Below, one piece after another: positions 6,900 to 14,593 of a stretch of 64,000 bases of DNA. Location of the stretch: the NCBI GenBank assembly GCA_038893355.1, contig JAWARQ010000004.1, forward strand, positions 64,001 to 128,000. Reading direction: 5' to 3'. This stretch comes from Sulfolobaceae archaeon. GTDB lineage: Archaea > Thermoproteota > Thermoprotei_A > Sulfolobales > Sulfolobaceae. The translations under genes were made by a program, and so were the position numbers. Below the pieces are notes generated by a model that had not been told where the DNA came from, did not search any database, and worked only from the letters and a program-made list of their open reading frames with translations. The number at the start of each line of letters is the position of its first letter. Positions within the stretch are counted from its first letter, which is position 1.

Positions 6900-7736
6900 A
6901 TGAGACAAGTATTAATTTGCTTTTGGACAGTTACAGTTATATTATTTATCTCTTTTCTATTTTATAATAGTATTACAATATTCGGAGAATTTATCCATTC
7001 TATAATTGATGCAATAACGGTAAGCTTTGGTTACTTCGCTTATAGAATTTCAAAATACTCAAGTCACGTATATACTTATGGCTTACACAGATTGGAAGTA
7101 TTTTCGGCGATAGTTAATTCTATTGCGATTATTGGTGCGATGTTATTTATAACCTTTGACATAATCTATAAATTAATATTTCCATTTAATACTACGAATG
7201 GATTATTTATAGCATTAGTATCTTTTGTTTCTTTAATTATATTTTTGCCAGTTATTAAAGATAAAGAGGTTATTATAAGGGGCAAAAGTAATATTAATAT
7301 TAGAAGTATTTTTATTCATACACTTTCTGATATTATCCAATTTATAATAGGTGGTATAATTGGGCTTTTAATTGTCTTTCTAGGTCTGGAATACTTAGAT
7401 ATAATAGGTGGTGCTATAATAGCTGTTATTTCCCTATATTTTGTAATGCCATTATTAAGAGAGTCTTTTTTAATTTTAATGGAAGGGTCTCCCGTGGAGT
7501 TAGAGAAGGTTGAAACTGAACTTAGTAAAGTTGCAAAAGTTCATCATATTCACGTATGGTCAATATGTTCAGAAATAAAAGTTGCAACGTTGCATGTAGA
7601 AGCATCTCCCGAAGCAAGACTTAAAGATCTAGAAGTAGTAAGAGCAAAAATAGAGGATATATTACGAGAGAAATTTGGTATAAACCATACTACAATACAA
7701 TTTGAAGTCAACTCAACTGATCAGGCCACCAGTTAA
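6900..7736 (+). CDS. Cation diffusion facilitator (CDF) metal transporter
   Basis: HS..D, YTYG.HRLE, H..SD, HH.HVW and H.TIQ motifs, about 6 TM segments. Confidence 0.88.
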   Translation: MRQVLICFWTVTVILFISFLFYNSITIFGEFIHSIIDAITVSFGYFAYRISKYSSHVYTYGLHRLEVFSAIVNSIAIIGAMLFITFDIIYKLIFPFNTTNGLFIALVSFVSLIIFLPVIKDKEVIIRGKSNINIRSIFIHTLSDIIQFIIGGIIGLLIVFLGLEYLDIIGGAIIAVISLYFVMPLLRESFLILMEGSPVELEKVETELSKVAKVHHIHVWSICSEIKVATLHVEASPEARLKDLEVVRAKIEDILREKFGINHTTIQFEVNSTDQATS

Positions 7737-8703
7737 CTATCCGCTTTTGGTTTAAGCCTAAAATTTCAATTATTCTTCTCTTATCCTTACTACTTACTTT
7801 AACATCAGAATGCACCTTAAGAAGTGGGAAAGGATAACCTCTGATACTAATTGGCAATAGGGCATTTATAATCTCCTCTATGAATTTCTCGTCCTTCTTT
7901 CCAAATATATCAAGCCTTAATACTTTTTCATTAGAAGCTAACCTAACATAAGTAGTAGTTATATTAAATTTTTCATTATCTATTCTAATTTCACTTATTT
8001 TCGGGACAGTATATCCAATGGAATTTGTAAATGTCTCTAATATTACTATATCTGGTATTGAAAGGTTAAATAATTTGGTAGACCTGCTTATCTTAGAAAT
8101 CCATAAGATTTTATCACCAAATTTAGTTACTGCTTTTTTAATTAATTTCAATTTTTCATTTAATATTAATATTCTTATTTCTTCTTCATCGTCAACTAAC
8201 ATCTCTGAGAGTAGAGTATATACATCGTTACCCTTGTTTTCCTCATTTGAAGATATGTCTATAGACGTCTTCTCAATCTTTTTAAAGGGACTACCATCCA
8301 TTAGTATATAATCAATATTGTTTTCCTCTTTACTACTACACTCCGTCATCATTCTAATTTCTAGAAAACTCATTATTTCTCTTACAAGTTCTTTTCCATG
8401 ATTTCCAGGCCTTAATATTCCTACTATAGAATCTTTTAGTATAGGCTTCATATTATTACCTGAATAGAATAATGCTTCGGCATTAACTACATAAAGTAAT
8501 CCTACTCTCAAATCTTTGCTATACATTCCACCATCTATTGCAATATATCCCTTCTTAAGGACGGGTTTCGTTAAATTTAACTCAATCCAATTTTCTTTTA
8601 TTTTTTCCCTTAATTCTTGTCTTAACATTAAATCGTATTTATTTATTTTTTCCCTTAATTTTATATATTTATTTATTATCTTAGTATAAACTTCTTCAAT
8701 CAT
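7708..8703 (-). CDS. nurA: DNA double-strand-break repair nuclease NurA
   Basis: AIDGG, LMDGS and GYP.PL..VH motifs. Last gene of the herA-mre11-rad50-nurA operon. Confidence 0.92.
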   Translation of the reverse strand: MIEEVYTKIINKYIKLREKINKYDLMLRQELREKIKENWIELNLTKPVLKKGYIAIDGGMYSKDLRVGLLYVVNAEALFYSGNNMKPILKDSIVGILRPGNHGKELVREIMSFLEIRMMTECSSKEENNIDYILMDGSPFKKIEKTSIDISSNEENKGNDVYTLLSEMLVDDEEEIRILILNEKLKLIKKAVTKFGDKILWISKISRSTKLFNLSIPDIVILETFTNSIGYTVPKISEIRIDNEKFNITTTYVRLASNEKVLRLDIFGKKDEKFIEEIINALLPISIRGYPFPLLKVHSDVKVSSKDKRRIIEILGLNQKRIVNWWPDQLS

Positions 8704-11291
8704 TTTTCCACCTCAACCACACTACCTTCACCCTTCTTTTCTACTCTTATTACATAATCCGCAACATTTACTACTTCTTGATCATGTGATACGATTATTA
8801 TTTGAGGTATTACCTGTGATGAAAGCCTTATTATATTTAATAGTTCTTGCTTTCTATATTCATCTAGATGTACGGTAGGTTCGTCCATTATTATGAAACC
8901 TATTTCAGATAGTATTGCCCTTGCGATGCTCATCCTTAGTGCAAGTGATAATGCAACCTTCTCTCCCCCACTTAATAAGTTAACTGATAATCTTTCCCCT
9001 GAATTCATAATTGCATTTATCTGATACTTATTTTGAACATCTATTTCAGCTCTAGATATAGAAAGATCGAATTTTGAGAGAATTTCATTTAAATTATTTT
9101 CTATTATTCTTTTAGTTGCACTAATTAGATAAGCTTGCAAAGAATTTTCACCTAGTAATTCTCTGAGTTTTTCCAATTTTTTAATTGCTTGTAAAATTTT
9201 TGTTTCTTCTTTAATATTTTCTTCTAATTCTTTAATATTTTCTTCTAATTCTTTAATATTACTCTGGACTTCTAGAAGTTTTCCCTGAACTTCACCTAAT
9301 TTTGTAGATAATAAATTAATATCTTTATTTATTCTTTCTAGTTTTTCTTTTAATTTTATATATTCATCCTCGTTAAAATTTAGTTCCCTAATTCTTTCCT
9401 CAATTTCTTTCTTTTCGGAGTAAAAGTCTTCTAATTCTTTTTTCAAATTCTCTAGTTCCATTTGAGCCTTCTTCTTTCTCTCTAATTCCTTCTTCTTCTG
9501 CTCTAAATCCTCTAATATTCTTTCAAGCTCCTTCTCATCATAATTCTCGATATCCTTAAACTTGCTAATTTCTACTAGCATCTCCTCTCTCTCTTTTACT
9601 ATTCTTTCAAGCTCCTCTTCATACTCTTTAAGTTCTTCTCTACTATACCTATCTACTTTTAAATAATTCTTATAGTTTTCCTCTATCTTCTTTAAATAAT
9701 TTTCTATCTCGATATAATTCTTATAGTTTTCCTCTAATTCTTTTAATTTCTTGTTAATATTCTCGATCTCTCCTTTTCTTTTATTTATTTCCCTTTCTAA
9801 ATATCTTCTCCTTTCATCTCTTCTTCTAATTTCTTCTAACCTTAATTCTAGATTATTAATAATATTATTTATTAAATTTCTTTTTGAATTTAATTGTGAT
9901 ATTTCATTAGAAATATTATTCAATTCTTGTGTAATTTCAGAAATTATTTTGTTTTTATGTTCTATTTCAAGATCTCTACCACAAACTGGACACTTATTTC
10001 CTTTAAGCGTTGATAAGTTACTTTTAATTTTCTCTAACTCCCTCTTTCTTCCATTCTTTTCACCTATTAATCTTTCAATTTTTCCAATTTCTTCCCTTAA
10101 ATTTCTTAACTCATTTTCTAACTTATCAATATTCTCAGAAATTTCAATTTTTCCAATTTCTTCCCTTAAATTTCTTAACTCATTTTCTAAATTTTTCAAA
10201 GAATTATTAAGTAATAAATATTCTTCATAATATTTCCTAAGATTCTCTAAAATTTTAGATTTTTCCAAATATTCTTCATAATATTTCCTAAGATTCTCTT
10301 TTTCATTTAACTTATTCCTATACTCTTCTATTTTTCTCTTTAGTTCTTTAATTCTTCCTTCATACTCTTCTATTTTTCTCTTTTTTCTCTTTAATTCTTC
10401 CAAAAATTGCTTTTTAATTTTGTATTCTTCAAGTTTTTCTTCAAGCTTTTCTAGATATTCTATCCCAGTTACTTCTTTTTCTAATTCCTTTTCTCTTTTT
10501 TCTCTTTTATTTATTTCATTAATTAAATAAATATATCTTGAATTTAACTTAATATATTCCTTATATTTCTCTTCCAATTCCTTTATTATTTCATTTAATA
10601 TATTAAATTCTTTTTTCTTCTCTTCCAATTCCTTTATTATTTCAGACTCTTCTTTTACTAATTCTTCTTCCTTCTTTCTAAATTCTTCTCTTCTCTTCTT
10701 CTCTTTATCATACTCGTTTTTATAAACTTCAATTAGTTGATACTTACTTTGAAGCTGTTTTATGAGATCTTTAATGGGTCCCCTTGAATCAACTAGTTTC
10801 TCGAGTTTGTCAAGTTTAAGAACTTTTTTCATAATGTCTGGCAAATTATCAATTATTTCCTCGATTTTGCCCTGTGGTATTATGATTGTATGCAATAATA
10901 CATCTTTAGGTATTTTTATATAGTCTAAAATTTTATTATTTACCTCCCTTGCCCCTCTTACTACTGTTTTTGCTGCTTGTTGAGTAACTTCTATGAGGAG
11001 GTCATTCGATGATGCAGAGGAAGAGGTTGAAATATTACGTTTAATTATTAATCGAGAATTACTTAATTCTAAGCTCAGCTCTAATGTAGCTTCTCTTTTT
11101 CCCTTCTTTATTAAATCTTCAATTCTATTACCTCTATTATTCTCTCTAAATAATGAAAATATTATTCCATCTATTATTGCACTCTTCCCTGCACCATTAG
11201 GTCCAATAATAGCGTTTATATTCCCTTCAAATTTTATTTTAGTGTCACTATGACTTAGGAAATTCTTTAATTCTATGCTATCTATTCTCAT
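8700..11291 (-). CDS. rad50: DNA double-strand-break repair ATPase Rad50
   Basis: GPNGAGKS, Q-loop PQG, CPVCG zinc hook, LSGGE, MDEPT.HLD and VSH. Confidence 0.96.
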   Translation of the reverse strand: MRIDSIELKNFLSHSDTKIKFEGNINAIIGPNGAGKSAIIDGIIFSLFRENNRGNRIEDLIKKGKREATLELSLELSNSRLIIKRNISTSSSASSNDLLIEVTQQAAKTVVRGAREVNNKILDYIKIPKDVLLHTIIIPQGKIEEIIDNLPDIMKKVLKLDKLEKLVDSRGPIKDLIKQLQSKYQLIEVYKNEYDKEKKRREEFRKKEEELVKEESEIIKELEEKKKEFNILNEIIKELEEKYKEYIKLNSRYIYLINEINKREKREKELEKEVTGIEYLEKLEEKLEEYKIKKQFLEELKRKKRKIEEYEGRIKELKRKIEEYRNKLNEKENLRKYYEEYLEKSKILENLRKYYEEYLLLNNSLKNLENELRNLREEIGKIEISENIDKLENELRNLREEIGKIERLIGEKNGRKRELEKIKSNLSTLKGNKCPVCGRDLEIEHKNKIISEITQELNNISNEISQLNSKRNLINNIINNLELRLEEIRRRDERRRYLEREINKRKGEIENINKKLKELEENYKNYIEIENYLKKIEENYKNYLKVDRYSREELKEYEEELERIVKEREEMLVEISKFKDIENYDEKELERILEDLEQKKKELERKKKAQMELENLKKELEDFYSEKKEIEERIRELNFNEDEYIKLKEKLERINKDINLLSTKLGEVQGKLLEVQSNIKELEENIKELEENIKEETKILQAIKKLEKLRELLGENSLQAYLISATKRIIENNLNEILSKFDLSISRAEIDVQNKYQINAIMNSGERLSVNLLSGGEKVALSLALRMSIARAILSEIGFIIMDEPTVHLDEYRKQELLNIIRLSSQVIPQIIIVSHDQEVVNVADYVIRVEKKGEGSVVEVEK
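9207..10644. repeat. Cluster of exact in-frame direct repeats inside the rad50 coiled coil
   Basis: 21-bp unit x2.5 (9207-9260); 49 bp at 10073-10121 and 10142-10190; 33 bp at 10216-10248 and 10267-10299; 27 bp at 10567-10593 and 10618-10644. Confidence 0.9.
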
Positions 11292-12433
11292 TCTAGACCA
11301 CTAAATAATTTTAATAATCTTACTGTTTCTTCCTCACTTTCAGAATTGATTATTCTTAACACTAACTCAGCCTCACTTTGATTTAGTCCATTCTTCTTCA
11401 GAAAATCAACTATTAAATCGTCTATAGTACTTTTCTCTGGTATTTCTAATCTCTGTGTCCCAATTTTTATTTTTGTATTGTCTTTATATATTCTATAATA
11501 TTCAGCAATTTGATATAATTTTCTTAACTCTTTTTCAATAACTTCTCTCTTAGCTACCTCACCCTCCAATATTAGATGTAGTATTGGTTTTTTCTTTTCA
11601 CTGTTTTTATACTTATTAATAATCCTTTCAATCTCTTTATTTAAATCATTTACTAGTATTTTTTCAACTTCTTGTCTTCTAATTTCTAAATCTATCTTTT
11701 GTAAAGAAACTTCGTCATCTTTACTAAAGTCTAATAAGAATACCCCTTTGCCATCTTTTTTATAGCCTTCTATTTCTTCTTCTCTGAATATTTCTGGAGA
11801 ACCTGCTATTCCTATAAGTGACCCGTCACTATTCCTGATTACCCTTCTAGTATGAAGATGGCCTAACGCATAATATCTAAAGCCTTTGGGTAAATCACCT
11901 AACTGAATTTGCCAAGAGTATTGGTATGGCAAAAGTTCTTTGTATCCTTGATGAAGTAACAAGATACTCTTTTTACATAAAGGTTTTAGCTGTTTTAGTG
12001 CTTCCTTTAACTTTTCTGCTGAAACATAAGGATAATGTTTAGAACCATGTACACAAATTTCATCTCCATCAAATTTAAAACTATAATAATCAGTTAATGG
12101 ATTAAGAATAAGTCGAATTAAGTCTAATTCTCTTAATAAATATAAGGGATAAACATCAGTTGATCTCTTAGGAGAATCGTGATCTCCAGGGATTACTACT
12201 AATTGGATTCCTTTCTCTTTAATACGCTTTAACTCAGTATATGCAATTAATTCTGCCTTATTTGACGGATTATTAACGTCGTAGAAATCTCCACTATGTA
12301 CTATCAGCTTTACTCTTTCCTTAATTGCTATATCTATTATACTTCTAAAAGTTTGATACACATCTTCTTCTCTAAAATCTAAGTTATACTGCCTTTTTCC
12401 TAGATGTGTATCCGAAGTGTGTAGAACTAGAAT
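11288..12433 (-). CDS. mre11: DNA double-strand-break repair nuclease Mre11 (probable ATT start)
   Basis: The frame extends upstream of the ORF-track start to ATT-CTA-GTT-CTA-CAC-ACT-TCG-GAT-ACA-CAT (motif I, DTH). Other motifs: HSGD, PGDHD, LHQ, LGHLH, GSP. Confidence 0.93.
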   Translation of the reverse strand: MLVLHTSDTHLGKRQYNLDFREEDVYQTFRSIIDIAIKERVKLIVHSGDFYDVNNPSNKAELIAYTELKRIKEKGIQLVVIPGDHDSPKRSTDVYPLYLLRELDLIRLILNPLTDYYSFKFDGDEICVHGSKHYPYVSAEKLKEALKQLKPLCKKSILLLHQGYKELLPYQYSWQIQLGDLPKGFRYYALGHLHTRRVIRNSDGSLIGIAGSPEIFREEEIEGYKKDGKGVFLLDFSKDDEVSLQKIDLEIRRQEVEKILVNDLNKEIERIINKYKNSEKKKPILHLILEGEVAKREVIEKELRKLYQIAEYYRIYKDNTKIKIGTQRLEIPEKSTIDDLIVDFLKKNGLNQSEAELVLRIINSESEEETVRLLKLFSGLE

Positions 12434-13953
12434 TTTAACTCACCCATCTCTGCAATCAAATCTGCTATTTCCTTTTGCTCTTTTGCTTCTCTCCATTCTT
12501 TCATTAAATCTGGATCTGAGCCTGATAGTTTACCTTCGAATTTATCAATTTTTACTATAGCAGGAATATTTACTATTTTTCCAATTACTATTGCTTCGCC
12601 TATATCAAGACTAGATAGTTGCTCTACTAGATCCTCACTTAAATTATCGCTAGCTTCTAGTATGTATTTTTTATCACTAGGTTCGATTATTTTAAGTATT
12701 ATTTTATTAGTCATTTGACTTAGAATATTTTCATCAAGACCCTTTGGTCTTTGACTTACTATTATTAAACCAACTCCAAATTTTCTTCCCTCTCTCGATA
12801 TTCTAGACGCCCAGTATTTAGTTAAAGTATTTCTATCTCTAGATAGGAATACATGAGCCTCTTCTATAACGACTAGTACTGGATACCTTAAACCTCCTCC
12901 TCTCCATTTATTTTCCTTCCTTGCATCTAAAATTCTCCTTAAGTAATGTGAAATTACAGCATCCATTGCTTCTTCGTCGAGTTGACTAATATTGACTACA
13001 TTTACCATTCCTAGCTTTATATTATGAATTATATCTGGTGCTAGTATATCTATTACATAACCATATCTATCCTGAAAATCTTCAATTTTACTTTCAACTT
13101 CATATCTTACATCTTTATCCCTAGATATAGATTTTTTATTGTCAGATACTTTAGATAATAGAGTTTCAAAGAACTTTTTCTTTAATTCTTCAGAGTTAAG
13201 ATAACTATTCTCTCTTATAATTTTTTCAATCTCCTCTTTCGTGTCAAGGAATGCTCTTCTAAATACTCTATACTGTTTAAATGCATTTTCTCTAATTTCT
13301 AAAAGTACTGCAAATTCTCGTGGATTTAGATGTAAAGGATTCAATTTTGGGTTTATAACATTTAAATATTTCATATTACTATCATAATATTCACCGTGAA
13401 AATCAAAGATTACCACACACCCACCATTTTCTGCAATTCTTTGTGATAGAACTGCTACTGCGTTAGATTTTCCAGATCCAGTAGCTGCAAGTATTGCTAA
13501 ATGTCTAGTTAAATAATTAGGATTAATACTTACTTCCACATCACTTCCAATAAGCTTACCTATCTTTATATTTCCATTTTCGAAAATTCTCTGTAGTTCT
13601 TCCTTCGTAGCTAGCCTAACTGGCGTCCCTGGTGGCGGGGGCAGTTCTACTCTTTCACATGAATTATTATCTATTAATTTACAAATAATTTTTATTTTTG
13701 CCTTAATATACTCCTTAATAGATTCTGGAACTTGGATCTCTCTCATTTTTTCGATTACTTCCACATCTGTTACAGTTTCATTAATTATATTACTACTAGA
13801 ATTTAATGAAACTATTAAACCAAGGACTTTGCTATTATCATATTCTAAAATTACATAAATACCACTCCTAATTTTATTTCGATGTTTTACTATCATTAAA
13901 GCAGATTCTACAGTTGATGAACCTATAGTATATCCTACTATAACTTTTGTCAT
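12427..13953 (-). CDS. herA: Bipolar DNA helicase/translocase HerA
   Basis: N-terminal HAS barrel, AATGSGKS, IEEAH, REGRKFG and SQRP. Confidence 0.95.
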   Translation of the reverse strand: MTKVIVGYTIGSSTVESALMIVKHRNKIRSGIYVILEYDNSKVLGLIVSLNSSSNIINETVTDVEVIEKMREIQVPESIKEYIKAKIKIICKLIDNNSCERVELPPPPGTPVRLATKEELQRIFENGNIKIGKLIGSDVEVSINPNYLTRHLAILAATGSGKSNAVAVLSQRIAENGGCVVIFDFHGEYYDSNMKYLNVINPKLNPLHLNPREFAVLLEIRENAFKQYRVFRRAFLDTKEEIEKIIRENSYLNSEELKKKFFETLLSKVSDNKKSISRDKDVRYEVESKIEDFQDRYGYVIDILAPDIIHNIKLGMVNVVNISQLDEEAMDAVISHYLRRILDARKENKWRGGGLRYPVLVVIEEAHVFLSRDRNTLTKYWASRISREGRKFGVGLIIVSQRPKGLDENILSQMTNKIILKIIEPSDKKYILEASDNLSEDLVEQLSSLDIGEAIVIGKIVNIPAIVKIDKFEGKLSGSDPDLMKEWREAKEQKEIADLIAEMGELKF

Positions 13954-14044
13954 TCGTTTTCAGAATCGCAGAATAAGGTTATAAAAGAAACTATAGATAA
14001 TACGGTAATACAATGAAGAAATAATAAAAATAATTAAATTCCCT

Positions 14045-14593
14045 TTAAAGGGCTTTGCTAACTTTCTTAGCAGTTTCTGCTATTTTTTCTTCTTGTTCTG
14101 CGAATTCACATAACATTTGTTCTATTTGTGGATATCCTTCTTCTTTTGCCTTCATAGCAATTCTATTGTACTCTTCAATATGCTCTCTATTCTCTTTTTC
14201 AGCAAAATCACTTAATAGAGACTTAACCTTAGCTAAAGTTTCTGCTATTTTTTCTTCTTGTTCTGCGAATTCACATAACATTTGTTCTATTTGTGGATAT
14301 CCTTCTTCTTTTGCCTTCATAGCAATTCTATTGTACTCTTCAATATGTTGTTTATTTTCTTCATATAGGGCATCACTAACTATATCCGTTACATTCTTAT
14401 ATTTTAACAGAGTTTCAAATATTGCCTTAGCATGACCTAATTCCACCATTGCTTTTTCCCTTAGCATTTTGGCCTCTTCTTTCTTACCTAATTGTTCTAA
14501 TTTTTCAGAGAGTAGTAATAATGTTAAATAGTCTTCTGCATTTGCTTTGAAGAGTTCCTTTAAACCTATTTCGGTTTGCCTACCTAGGCTCAT
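14045..14593 (-). CDS. Ferritin/rubrerythrin-like helical-bundle protein with internal duplication
   Basis: E..HA motif and A..A..EG...I...L...A..E helices. The C-terminal helix pair is present twice. Confidence 0.7.
   Translation of the reverse strand: MSLGRQTEIGLKELFKANAEDYLTLLLLSEKLEQLGKKEEAKMLREKAMVELGHAKAIFETLLKYKNVTDIVSDALYEENKQHIEEYNRIAMKAKEEGYPQIEQMLCEFAEQEEKIAETLAKVKSLLSDFAEKENREHIEEYNRIAMKAKEEGYPQIEQMLCEFAEQEEKIAETAKKVSKAL
14072..14347. repeat. Exact 111-bp direct repeat, period 165 bp
   Basis: 14072-14182 is identical to 14237-14347. Confidence 0.97.

Follow-up and report, generated by a model that had tools for sequence, protein, structure and literature searches.

Where does translation of mre11 start when the gene offers no conventional start codon ahead of its catalytic motif I? 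This question is raised by the herA-mre11 junction of a hot-spring archaeon of the Sulfolobaceae, located in a stretch of 64,000 nucleotides (nt) of contig JAWARQ010000004.1 (assembly GCA_038893355.1), hereafter called the window, whose first letter is position 1 (Table 1). On the minus strand, 12445-12404 reads GGG TGA GTT AAA ATT CTA GTT CTA CAC ACT TCG GAT ACA CAT in the mre11 frame, with zero ATG, GTG, or TTG codons from the in-frame TGA up to motif I, where ATT is the only codon that differs from AUG by a single mismatch. This ATT (12433-12431) is codon -7 counted from the Asp of motif I and stands 6 nt (12439-12434) after a Shine-Dalgarno (SD) motif, GGTGA, whose own TGA (12442-12440) is the in-frame stop. 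An earlier note on this DNA had proposed that Mre11 is initiated at this codon; its reading of the frame, its coordinates, and its description were all correct, including the absence of ATG, GTG, and TTG ahead of motif I (the first canonical codon being the GTG at 12361-12359) and the location of ATT within the last herA codons. The two genes overlap by 7 nt (ATTCTAG). We consider that mre11 is probably translated from the AUU at 12433-12431 (probability of roughly 80%), and that this is best explained as one case of a start-codon habit of the Sulfolobaceae, not as a control dedicated to Mre11.

Read from ATT, the protein matches Pfam PF00149 (Metallophos) over residues 3-195 with 47.2 bits (cut-off 21.5) and carries HTSDTHLG at residues 5-12, that is, motif I close to the N-terminus, a layout obtained only with a start upstream of 12412. 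It is 45 to 53% identical to Sulfolobaceae proteins named Mre11 and 76% identical (288/379 positions) to P0003, an unnamed protein of a sister species, and its relatives align from residue 1-3 of this reading. A lone ATT at one codon would be unremarkable, since ATT accounts for 5.7% of the codons in the pre-start regions of this genome; the mre11 ATT gains its weight from the fact that no canonical start exists, that its position is homologous to the starts of relatives, and that such codons show a genome-wide, position-specific excess, described below.

A start at the first canonical in-frame codon, the GTG at 12361-12359, would give the shortened protein of 357 amino acids (MYQTF..) that was in fact called in Logan (P0002); it would cut the first 24 Mre11 residues, D-T-H included, as the earlier note had pointed out for the open reading frame (ORF) starting there, and a gene left with this start would be equivalent to a young pseudogene. 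Residues 4-24, which precede this GTG, are identical to P0003 at 20 of 21 positions, compared with 76% over the whole protein, and are therefore translated and constrained, which argues against both the GTG start and a pseudogene. Moreover, the frame is open with motifs I to V visible in its translation, herA, rad50, and nurA are intact according to Pfam, the start-less state is also found in a sister diverged to 76% identity, and no GGTGA occurs ahead of the GTG. We regard this explanation as very unlikely.

Comparison of the herA-mre11 junction at 28 non-self loci (25 genomes and three metagenome contigs) revealed that 28/28 relatives have a canonical start in the interval from codon -12 to codon -4. 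Codon -7 itself, the position at which Met is expected, is canonical in 23 of them (ATG in 19, TTG in 3, and GTG in 1), the other five having ATG at -8 (G011, G018, and G029) or GTG at -10 (G006 and G017); in the latter two, codon -7 is ACG and the in-frame GTG lies inside the SD. The relative G062 has GG TGA GTA AAA ATG CAA, equal in length and frame to GG TGA GTT AAA ATT CTA of the window, which differs from it by ATG to ATT and by a change of the herA stop from TAA to TTA that extends HerA by Leu-Lys-Phe. Point substitutions therefore suffice to produce the state of the window, and this state probably arose by these two changes, which would fit a G+C content of 30-33%. A 1-nt insertion relative to G006 and G017, knocking an ancestral GTG out of frame, is rejected in view of the layout of G062, which belongs to the same genus. 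With its C-terminus ..EMGELKF, HerA of the window has three residues more past G-E than that of S. tokodaii (..NWGE).

Only the sister species appears to share the lack of a canonical start. It is known solely from proteins on one contig of 23,377 bp, where its HerA (P0221, 85% identical) ends with ..GELKY; because the herA and mre11 frames overlap and this herA ends with Lys-Tyr-stop, codon -7 of the sister mre11 would be ATA or GTA, and the genus would thus be without a canonical start at this codon. Homologues of P0003 in metagenome contigs (13 loci) were all at most 50% identical, and the search of 47 family genomes gave no match above 53% except G000.

The source of the window is a metagenome-assembled genome (1,403,383 bp, 17 contigs, 83.8% complete, 30-33% G+C), the sole member of its genus among the genomes compared. 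This provenance, together with the in-frame GTG inside the SD of G006 and G017, would favor an error of sequencing or assembly, either concealing a true ATG or creating an indel whose correction would bring the out-of-frame GTG at 12443-12441 into frame. Part of the stretch is contained in 13 public runs, and four of them, from four studies, were compared by using Logan contigs. All four span the junction without a differing letter or a gap and are letter-identical across 12418-12454, where they show ATT, neither ATG nor an indel, at the level of contigs, not raw reads. One run may be the source of the assembly, and the agreement of the three independent samples makes an assembly artefact very unlikely. 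In addition, the C-terminus of the sister HerA indicates matching frame relations, and G062 has the same layout without an indel. The explanation by error is already largely refuted, and we consider it extremely unlikely. Within 11900-13000 of the window, no letter differs in the parts covered by contigs of four runs and studies, which comprise hot springs, an unspecified metagenome, and an 'organism A' run. From sample to sample, the species seems to be almost clonal.

Relative to herA, which ends with GAG ATG GGT GAG TTA AAA TTC TAG, mre11 is read in the -1 frame. A -1 ribosomal slip from herA at UUA AAA, with tRNA-Lys re-pairing on A AAA, could therefore be invoked to give a HerA-Mre11 fusion, since A AAA permits re-pairing in the P site and the next -1 codon is AUU. 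However, in the sequence G UUA AAA UUC UAG the segment A AAA UUC does not conform to the X XXY YYZ pattern of a slippery heptamer, and the run comprises four A only. The junction RNA has a minimum free energy of -11.5 kcal/mol, whereas shuffles average -15.85 (z = +1.58) and 190 of 200 of them are at least as stable; it thus folds less well than shuffles and provides no stimulatory downstream structure; such weak structure suits an open initiation site and lends no support to a frameshift stimulator. The protein search covered forms of up to 667 amino acids. A slip would also leave unexplained the other genes of this genome that start with related codons, and we give it hardly any credence.

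To what extent such codons occur elsewhere was addressed by a census of the whole genome, comprising ORFs open for at least 120 codons with no ATG, GTG, or TTG from the upstream stop to 12 codons downstream. In the in-frame series, in which the TGA of GGTGA closes the frame, ATT, ATA, or ATC (ATH) was found 6 nt after GGTGA in 10/19 start-less ORFs (six ATT and four ATA, plus one ACG), compared with 2/17 at 0 nt, 1/18 at 3 nt, and 1/16 each at 9, 12, and 15 nt, that is, 6/83 at the other in-frame offsets (Fisher p = 2e-5). At 7 nt the count was 3/5, and at 1, 4, 10, and 13 nt it was 0/5, 0/5, 0/6, and 1/5. Control motifs at 6 nt gave ATH in 2/29 cases (AGTGA 0/9, TTTGA 1/14, and AATGA 1/6; p = 6e-4), a test from which GAGTG (0/1) was left out. 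Altogether, 13 ATH candidates lie 6-7 nt after GGTGA in 1.4 Mb, and mre11 is among them, having ATH at this distance, an upstream in-frame stop, and no canonical start within 12 codons.

The spacing is also that of ordinary genes. GGTGA precedes 139 canonical starts of this genome at 3-10 nt, mostly at 4-7 nt (35 at 4 nt, 26 at 5 nt, 35 at 6 nt, and 19 at 7 nt), a range that includes the 6 nt of mre11, and the 16S rRNA 3' end (..GGATCACCTCA) contains UCACC, which is complementary to GGTGA. SD extension averaged 1.92 nt at ATH sites and 0.98 nt at the sites compared with them (13 and 46 sites, respectively), a difference that was not significant (Mann-Whitney p = 0.075). The initiator tRNA gene is ordinary, with a CAT anticodon, A1:U72, and GGG/CCC in the anticodon stem; the available part of PMC7668247, on tRNA modification, contains nothing on position 34 of the initiator tRNA.

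When curated NCBIfam models were aligned to the proteins read from the ATH codon, they began at or close to the N-terminus in TrpE, FEN1, Top6A, two alcohol dehydrogenases, TBP, a GTP-dependent dephospho-CoA kinase, and TruD (Table 1). In a phosphatase homologue, residue 1, encoded by ATT, aligns to Met1 of the S. solfataricus PTP structure 2i6i. Since TBP, FEN1, and Top6A cannot all be dead, the organism must initiate at such codons. In Top6A and TrpE, ATA is peculiar to this genome, five relatives having ATG or GTG instead.

The pattern extends over the family. In a 400-kb piece of G019, ATT or ATA was found at 6 nt in 5/7 start-less ORFs, plus one ACG, compared with 5/37 at other in-frame offsets (p = 0.004); G006 had 1 ATA of 3 at 6 nt, and G028, from another family, 1 ATA of 2. 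A 400-kb piece of G007 had 0 start-less ORFs after GGTGA at every offset and speaks neither for nor against the pattern. LeuRS of G019 is a further candidate for an ATH start. In the succinyl-CoA synthetase alpha-like gene of G019 (L074:17216), ACG stands 6 nt after GGTGA (TLINKNTRVLVQGITG), and canonical starts are absent for 25 codons.

FEN1 provides the most uniform example. Of 47 genomes searched, 45 matched, and the loci compared are the best 30 plus one; the conserved I-G-V-(D/N/Q)-L N-terminus opens with ATA in 25, ATC in 5, and ATT in 1, never with ATG. In all 31 Sulfolobaceae genomes, this ATH follows GGTGA at a distance of exactly 6 nt, a stop is located 1-2 codons before it, and canonical codons are absent up to +5. 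Similarly, TBP lacks a canonical alternative to the ATH located 6 nt after GGTGA in six of eight genomes from eight genera, the remaining two (G003 and G013) having GGTGG that contains an in-frame GTG, followed by ATH. Thus, the ATH starts appear to fall into two classes, one old and conserved (FEN1 and TBP) and the other young and lineage specific (mre11, Top6A, and TrpE). The retention of such codons across the family by FEN1 (31/31) and TBP may point to selection for a non-AUG codon.

Table 1. Positions of the junction features, of the sequencing runs covering them, and of other genes with candidate ATH starts (window coordinates unless a locus or residues are given).
Feature	Position	Strand	Basis or remark
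Shine-Dalgarno GGTGA	12440..12444	-	own TGA is the in-frame stop opening the mre11 frame
ATT, proposed mre11 start codon, read as Met	12431..12433	-	6 nt after GGTGA
Motif I codons GAT ACA CAT (D-T-H), Mre11 phosphoesterase	12404..12412	-	translation
GTG, first canonical in-frame start	12359..12361	-	ORF 11288..12361, 357 amino acids
mre11 coding sequence from ATT	11288..12433	-	381 codons plus stop; translation, Pfam
herA, 508 amino acids	12427..13953	-	DUF87/HerA 156 bits, HAS-barrel; stop TAG 12429-12427
rad50	8700..11291	-	zinc hook, AAA_23; ATG overlaps mre11 stop (ATGA)
nurA	7708..8703	-	NurA domain; ATG 4 nt after GGTGG
Run X1	covers junction		possible source of assembly; depth 10.8
Run X2	12119-12688		independent; depth 3.2
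Run X13	12314-12644		independent; depth 3.9
Run X4	12237-12495		independent; depth 4
FEN1 start	L099:1063-1065 (G000 C5)	-	further loci L108-L112, L168-L193
TBP loci	L094:301-303 (G000 C5:29602), L064 (G006), L077 (G019), L163-L167
TrpE, ATA	residues 1-434		model 1-421/421
FEN1, ATA	residues 1-354		model 1-338/338
Top6A, ATA	residues 3-385		model 3-385/386
Alcohol dehydrogenase 1, ATT	from residue 2		model from 2
Alcohol dehydrogenase 2, ATT	from residue 2		model from 3
TBP, ATT	residues 7-197		model 3-193/194
GTP-dependent dephospho-CoA kinase, ATA, 7 nt	residues 4-172		model 2-169/176
TruD, ATT	residues 5-283		model 4-304/449

How might initiation at this codon proceed? mre11 is the second gene of a herA-mre11-rad50-nurA operon, an archaeal neighborhood recognized from the Pfam domains of adjacent genes on the same strand. 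GGUGA would pair with UCACC near the 16S rRNA 3' end, setting AUU in the P site, where Met-tRNAi (anticodon CAU) would pair with A and U and tolerate the third-position U opposite C34; with this mismatch tolerated, Mre11 would begin with Met. Ribosomes that reach the herA UAG, one base past AUU, may in addition reinitiate and raise the yield, and the coupling of Mre11 to herA termination suggested in the earlier note is plausible, the 7-nt overlap being compatible with it. In a strict form of such coupling, AUU would be used only by ribosomes that have just ended at the herA UAG (12429-12427), with little SD-led de novo binding, and Mre11 would depend on HerA entirely. The overlap of ATT and the herA stop as ATTCTAG, the similar junction of rad50 with mre11 via ATGA, and the single promoter-like TTTATAA box of the operon, located before herA, fit such an arrangement. 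On the other hand, other ATH starts 6 nt after GGTGA have no upstream cistron ending there, for instance TBP, preceded in several genera by a TATA-like box at a distance of about 20-30 nt, and mre11 itself has a full GGTGA at the usual spacing; moreover, the two mechanisms are not exclusive. Strict reinitiation is accordingly judged rather unlikely, and SD-led initiation at AUU remains the preferred reading. A scan of 12300-14300 for promoters and terminators of bacterial type, a kind of scan not applicable to archaea, found nothing above shuffles.

The E. coli gene infC is autoregulated by IF3. Like mre11, infC and pcnB lack a canonical start and have AUU after an SD together with an ordinary initiator tRNA, and they are the only E. 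coli genes confirmed to start with AUU, according to 10.1101/063800. They represent a rare, conserved, and factor-sensed control point, whereas the ATT of mre11 is confined to one genus, with 28/28 relatives canonical, and its host is an archaeon, which has aIF1/aIF2 in place of IF3 and in whose genome ATH starts are frequent. The earlier note had linked its AUU to this rare regulatory kind: the non-canonical start at ATT stands, in view of position, spacing, homology, N-terminal conservation, and parallels, while the regulatory comparison lacks support, given 13 ATH candidates in 1.4 Mb (TBP, FEN1, and Top6A included) and canonical starts in 28/28 relatives. With a young codon and a general habit, mre11 offers no support for a regulatory role of the infC/pcnB type, and this general use also weakens the translational dampening of Mre11 proposed in that note.

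Closer parallels are found within the Sulfolobales. The starts of FEN1 and TBP resemble that of mre11 in having GGTGA, a 6-nt spacing, ATH, an in-frame stop just upstream (often the TGA of the SD), and no canonical start; they differ in that their non-AUG codons are old and conserved across genera, whereas in mre11, as in Top6A and TrpE of this genome, ATG was replaced recently in a single lineage. SD-led initiation of operon-internal Sulfolobus genes has been described (Tolstrup et al. 2000 and Benelli et al. 2003, cited in PMC10783764), and mre11, as a second operon gene, shares with these the pairing of GGTGA with the 16S rRNA 3' end and the short spacing, but not a start of AUG, GUG, or UUG. 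ORFs of fusellovirus SSV10 have been annotated with CUG, AUU, and AUA starts (PMC6080066), so that AUU is among the annotated starts of a Sulfolobales virus; unlike mre11, these are viral ORFs, not cellular core genes, and no analysis of SD spacing or conservation is reported for them. AUA, AUU, and AUC were accepted as annotated starts in the methods section of PMC5397173. A literature search, which left the genome papers PMC1169522 and PMC35428 and supplements outside its scope, found no account of SD-led AUU, AUA, or AUC starts in cellular genes of Sulfolobales.

Public records already contain the protein in this form. NCBI protein P0341 has 381 amino acids (MLVLHTSDTH..), occurs on four contigs, and equals the ATT reading with Met, and two partial NCBI proteins (P0342 and P0343) have the same N-terminus. 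The TBP of this species in NCBI (P0101) begins with MKYNPN.., its Met being ATA in the genome DNA, and the S. acidocaldarius TBP in UniProt/nr (P0105, MIPDE..) corresponds to a reading of the G019 gene that begins at the ATT directly preceding the 6-nt ATA. Such starts are therefore already accepted case by case in pipelines and by some curators. The chain of the S. solfataricus FEN1 structure 2izo starts five residues late, at the residue aligned to position 6-7, without the I/M-G-V-D-L that an ATH start would supply.

Several points weigh against an AUU start of mre11. The initiation itself is deduced from sequence, and the base call is backed by Logan contigs at depth 3-11, not by raw reads. 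P0341 is known here as a protein alone, so that some of its four contigs could carry ATG, and it is a pipeline call, not experimental evidence. The gene call of P0003 begins with LHVSDTH at codon -4, which makes a start closer to motif I viable in the sister; the window has CTA at -4. AUA, AUC, AUU, and CUG starts reach 1-2% of AUG in E. coli (10.1101/063800), and discrimination against non-canonical starts has been reported for aIF1 of S. solfataricus (cited in PMC6237735). The census filter mostly sees spacings that put the TGA of the SD in frame, and other spacings therefore cannot be called unused. Finally, some start-less genes lie outside the ATH rule (FtsY, with TGT in two genera, KsgA, IleRS, and L14), so that the rule is incomplete as it stands. 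That TBP, FEN1, and aminoacyl-tRNA synthetases use ATH suggests that the penalty on AUU is smaller here than in E. coli.

As observed in these exceptions, the FtsY-like gene (L106:301-303, G000 C1:37236; L083, G019) has no ATG, GTG, or TTG for about 158 codons and shows, in both genomes, TGT 6 nt after GGTGA (CFDRLKKAF) and ATA abutting GGTGA. Judged against NCBIfam N-termini, the first canonical start is found at +146 codons in the IleRS-like gene, +74 in the KsgA-like gene, and +79 in the gene of ribosomal protein L14 (L104, L105, L107, G000 C1), and the IleRS-like and KsgA-like genes have TTA 6 nt after GGTGA.

For mre11, the result is mainly one of annotation: gene callers limited to ATG, GTG, and TTG give a protein without the catalytic motif I, and the gene could be mistaken for a pseudogene. 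The AUU start is already reflected in NCBI record P0341 as a protein sequence with a Met start, and the family-wide ATH pattern is of greater interest than this single case. On balance, we lean toward a wider reading, in which AUU, AUA, and AUC placed 6 nt after GGUGA would be regular starts in Sulfolobaceae, amounting to about 1 in 10 strong-SD starts here. The FEN1 and TBP codons would be under selection, for example sensed by aIF1 in a manner akin to infC and IF3, and mre11, Top6A, and TrpE would be recent recruits; such starts would have been missed by gene finders (P0002 and P0107) and in 2izo. If ATH behind GGUGA is indeed ordinary in this family, the start-codon rules applied to archaea are too narrow and the N-termini of model-organism proteins may be mis-set, as in the crystallized S. 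solfataricus FEN1, five residues short. Moreover, FEN1 and TBP, whose non-AUG starts are conserved strictly in the former and largely in the latter, would then offer a directly testable case of start-codon control in an archaeon with eukaryote-like initiation machinery.

A minor feature of the junction is the out-of-frame GTG inside the SD, which opens a two-codon mini-ORF, GTG AGT TAA (12435-12443, minus strand), ending 1 base before ATT; a comparable GTG ATG TAA is located ahead of the frame of the IleRS-like gene.

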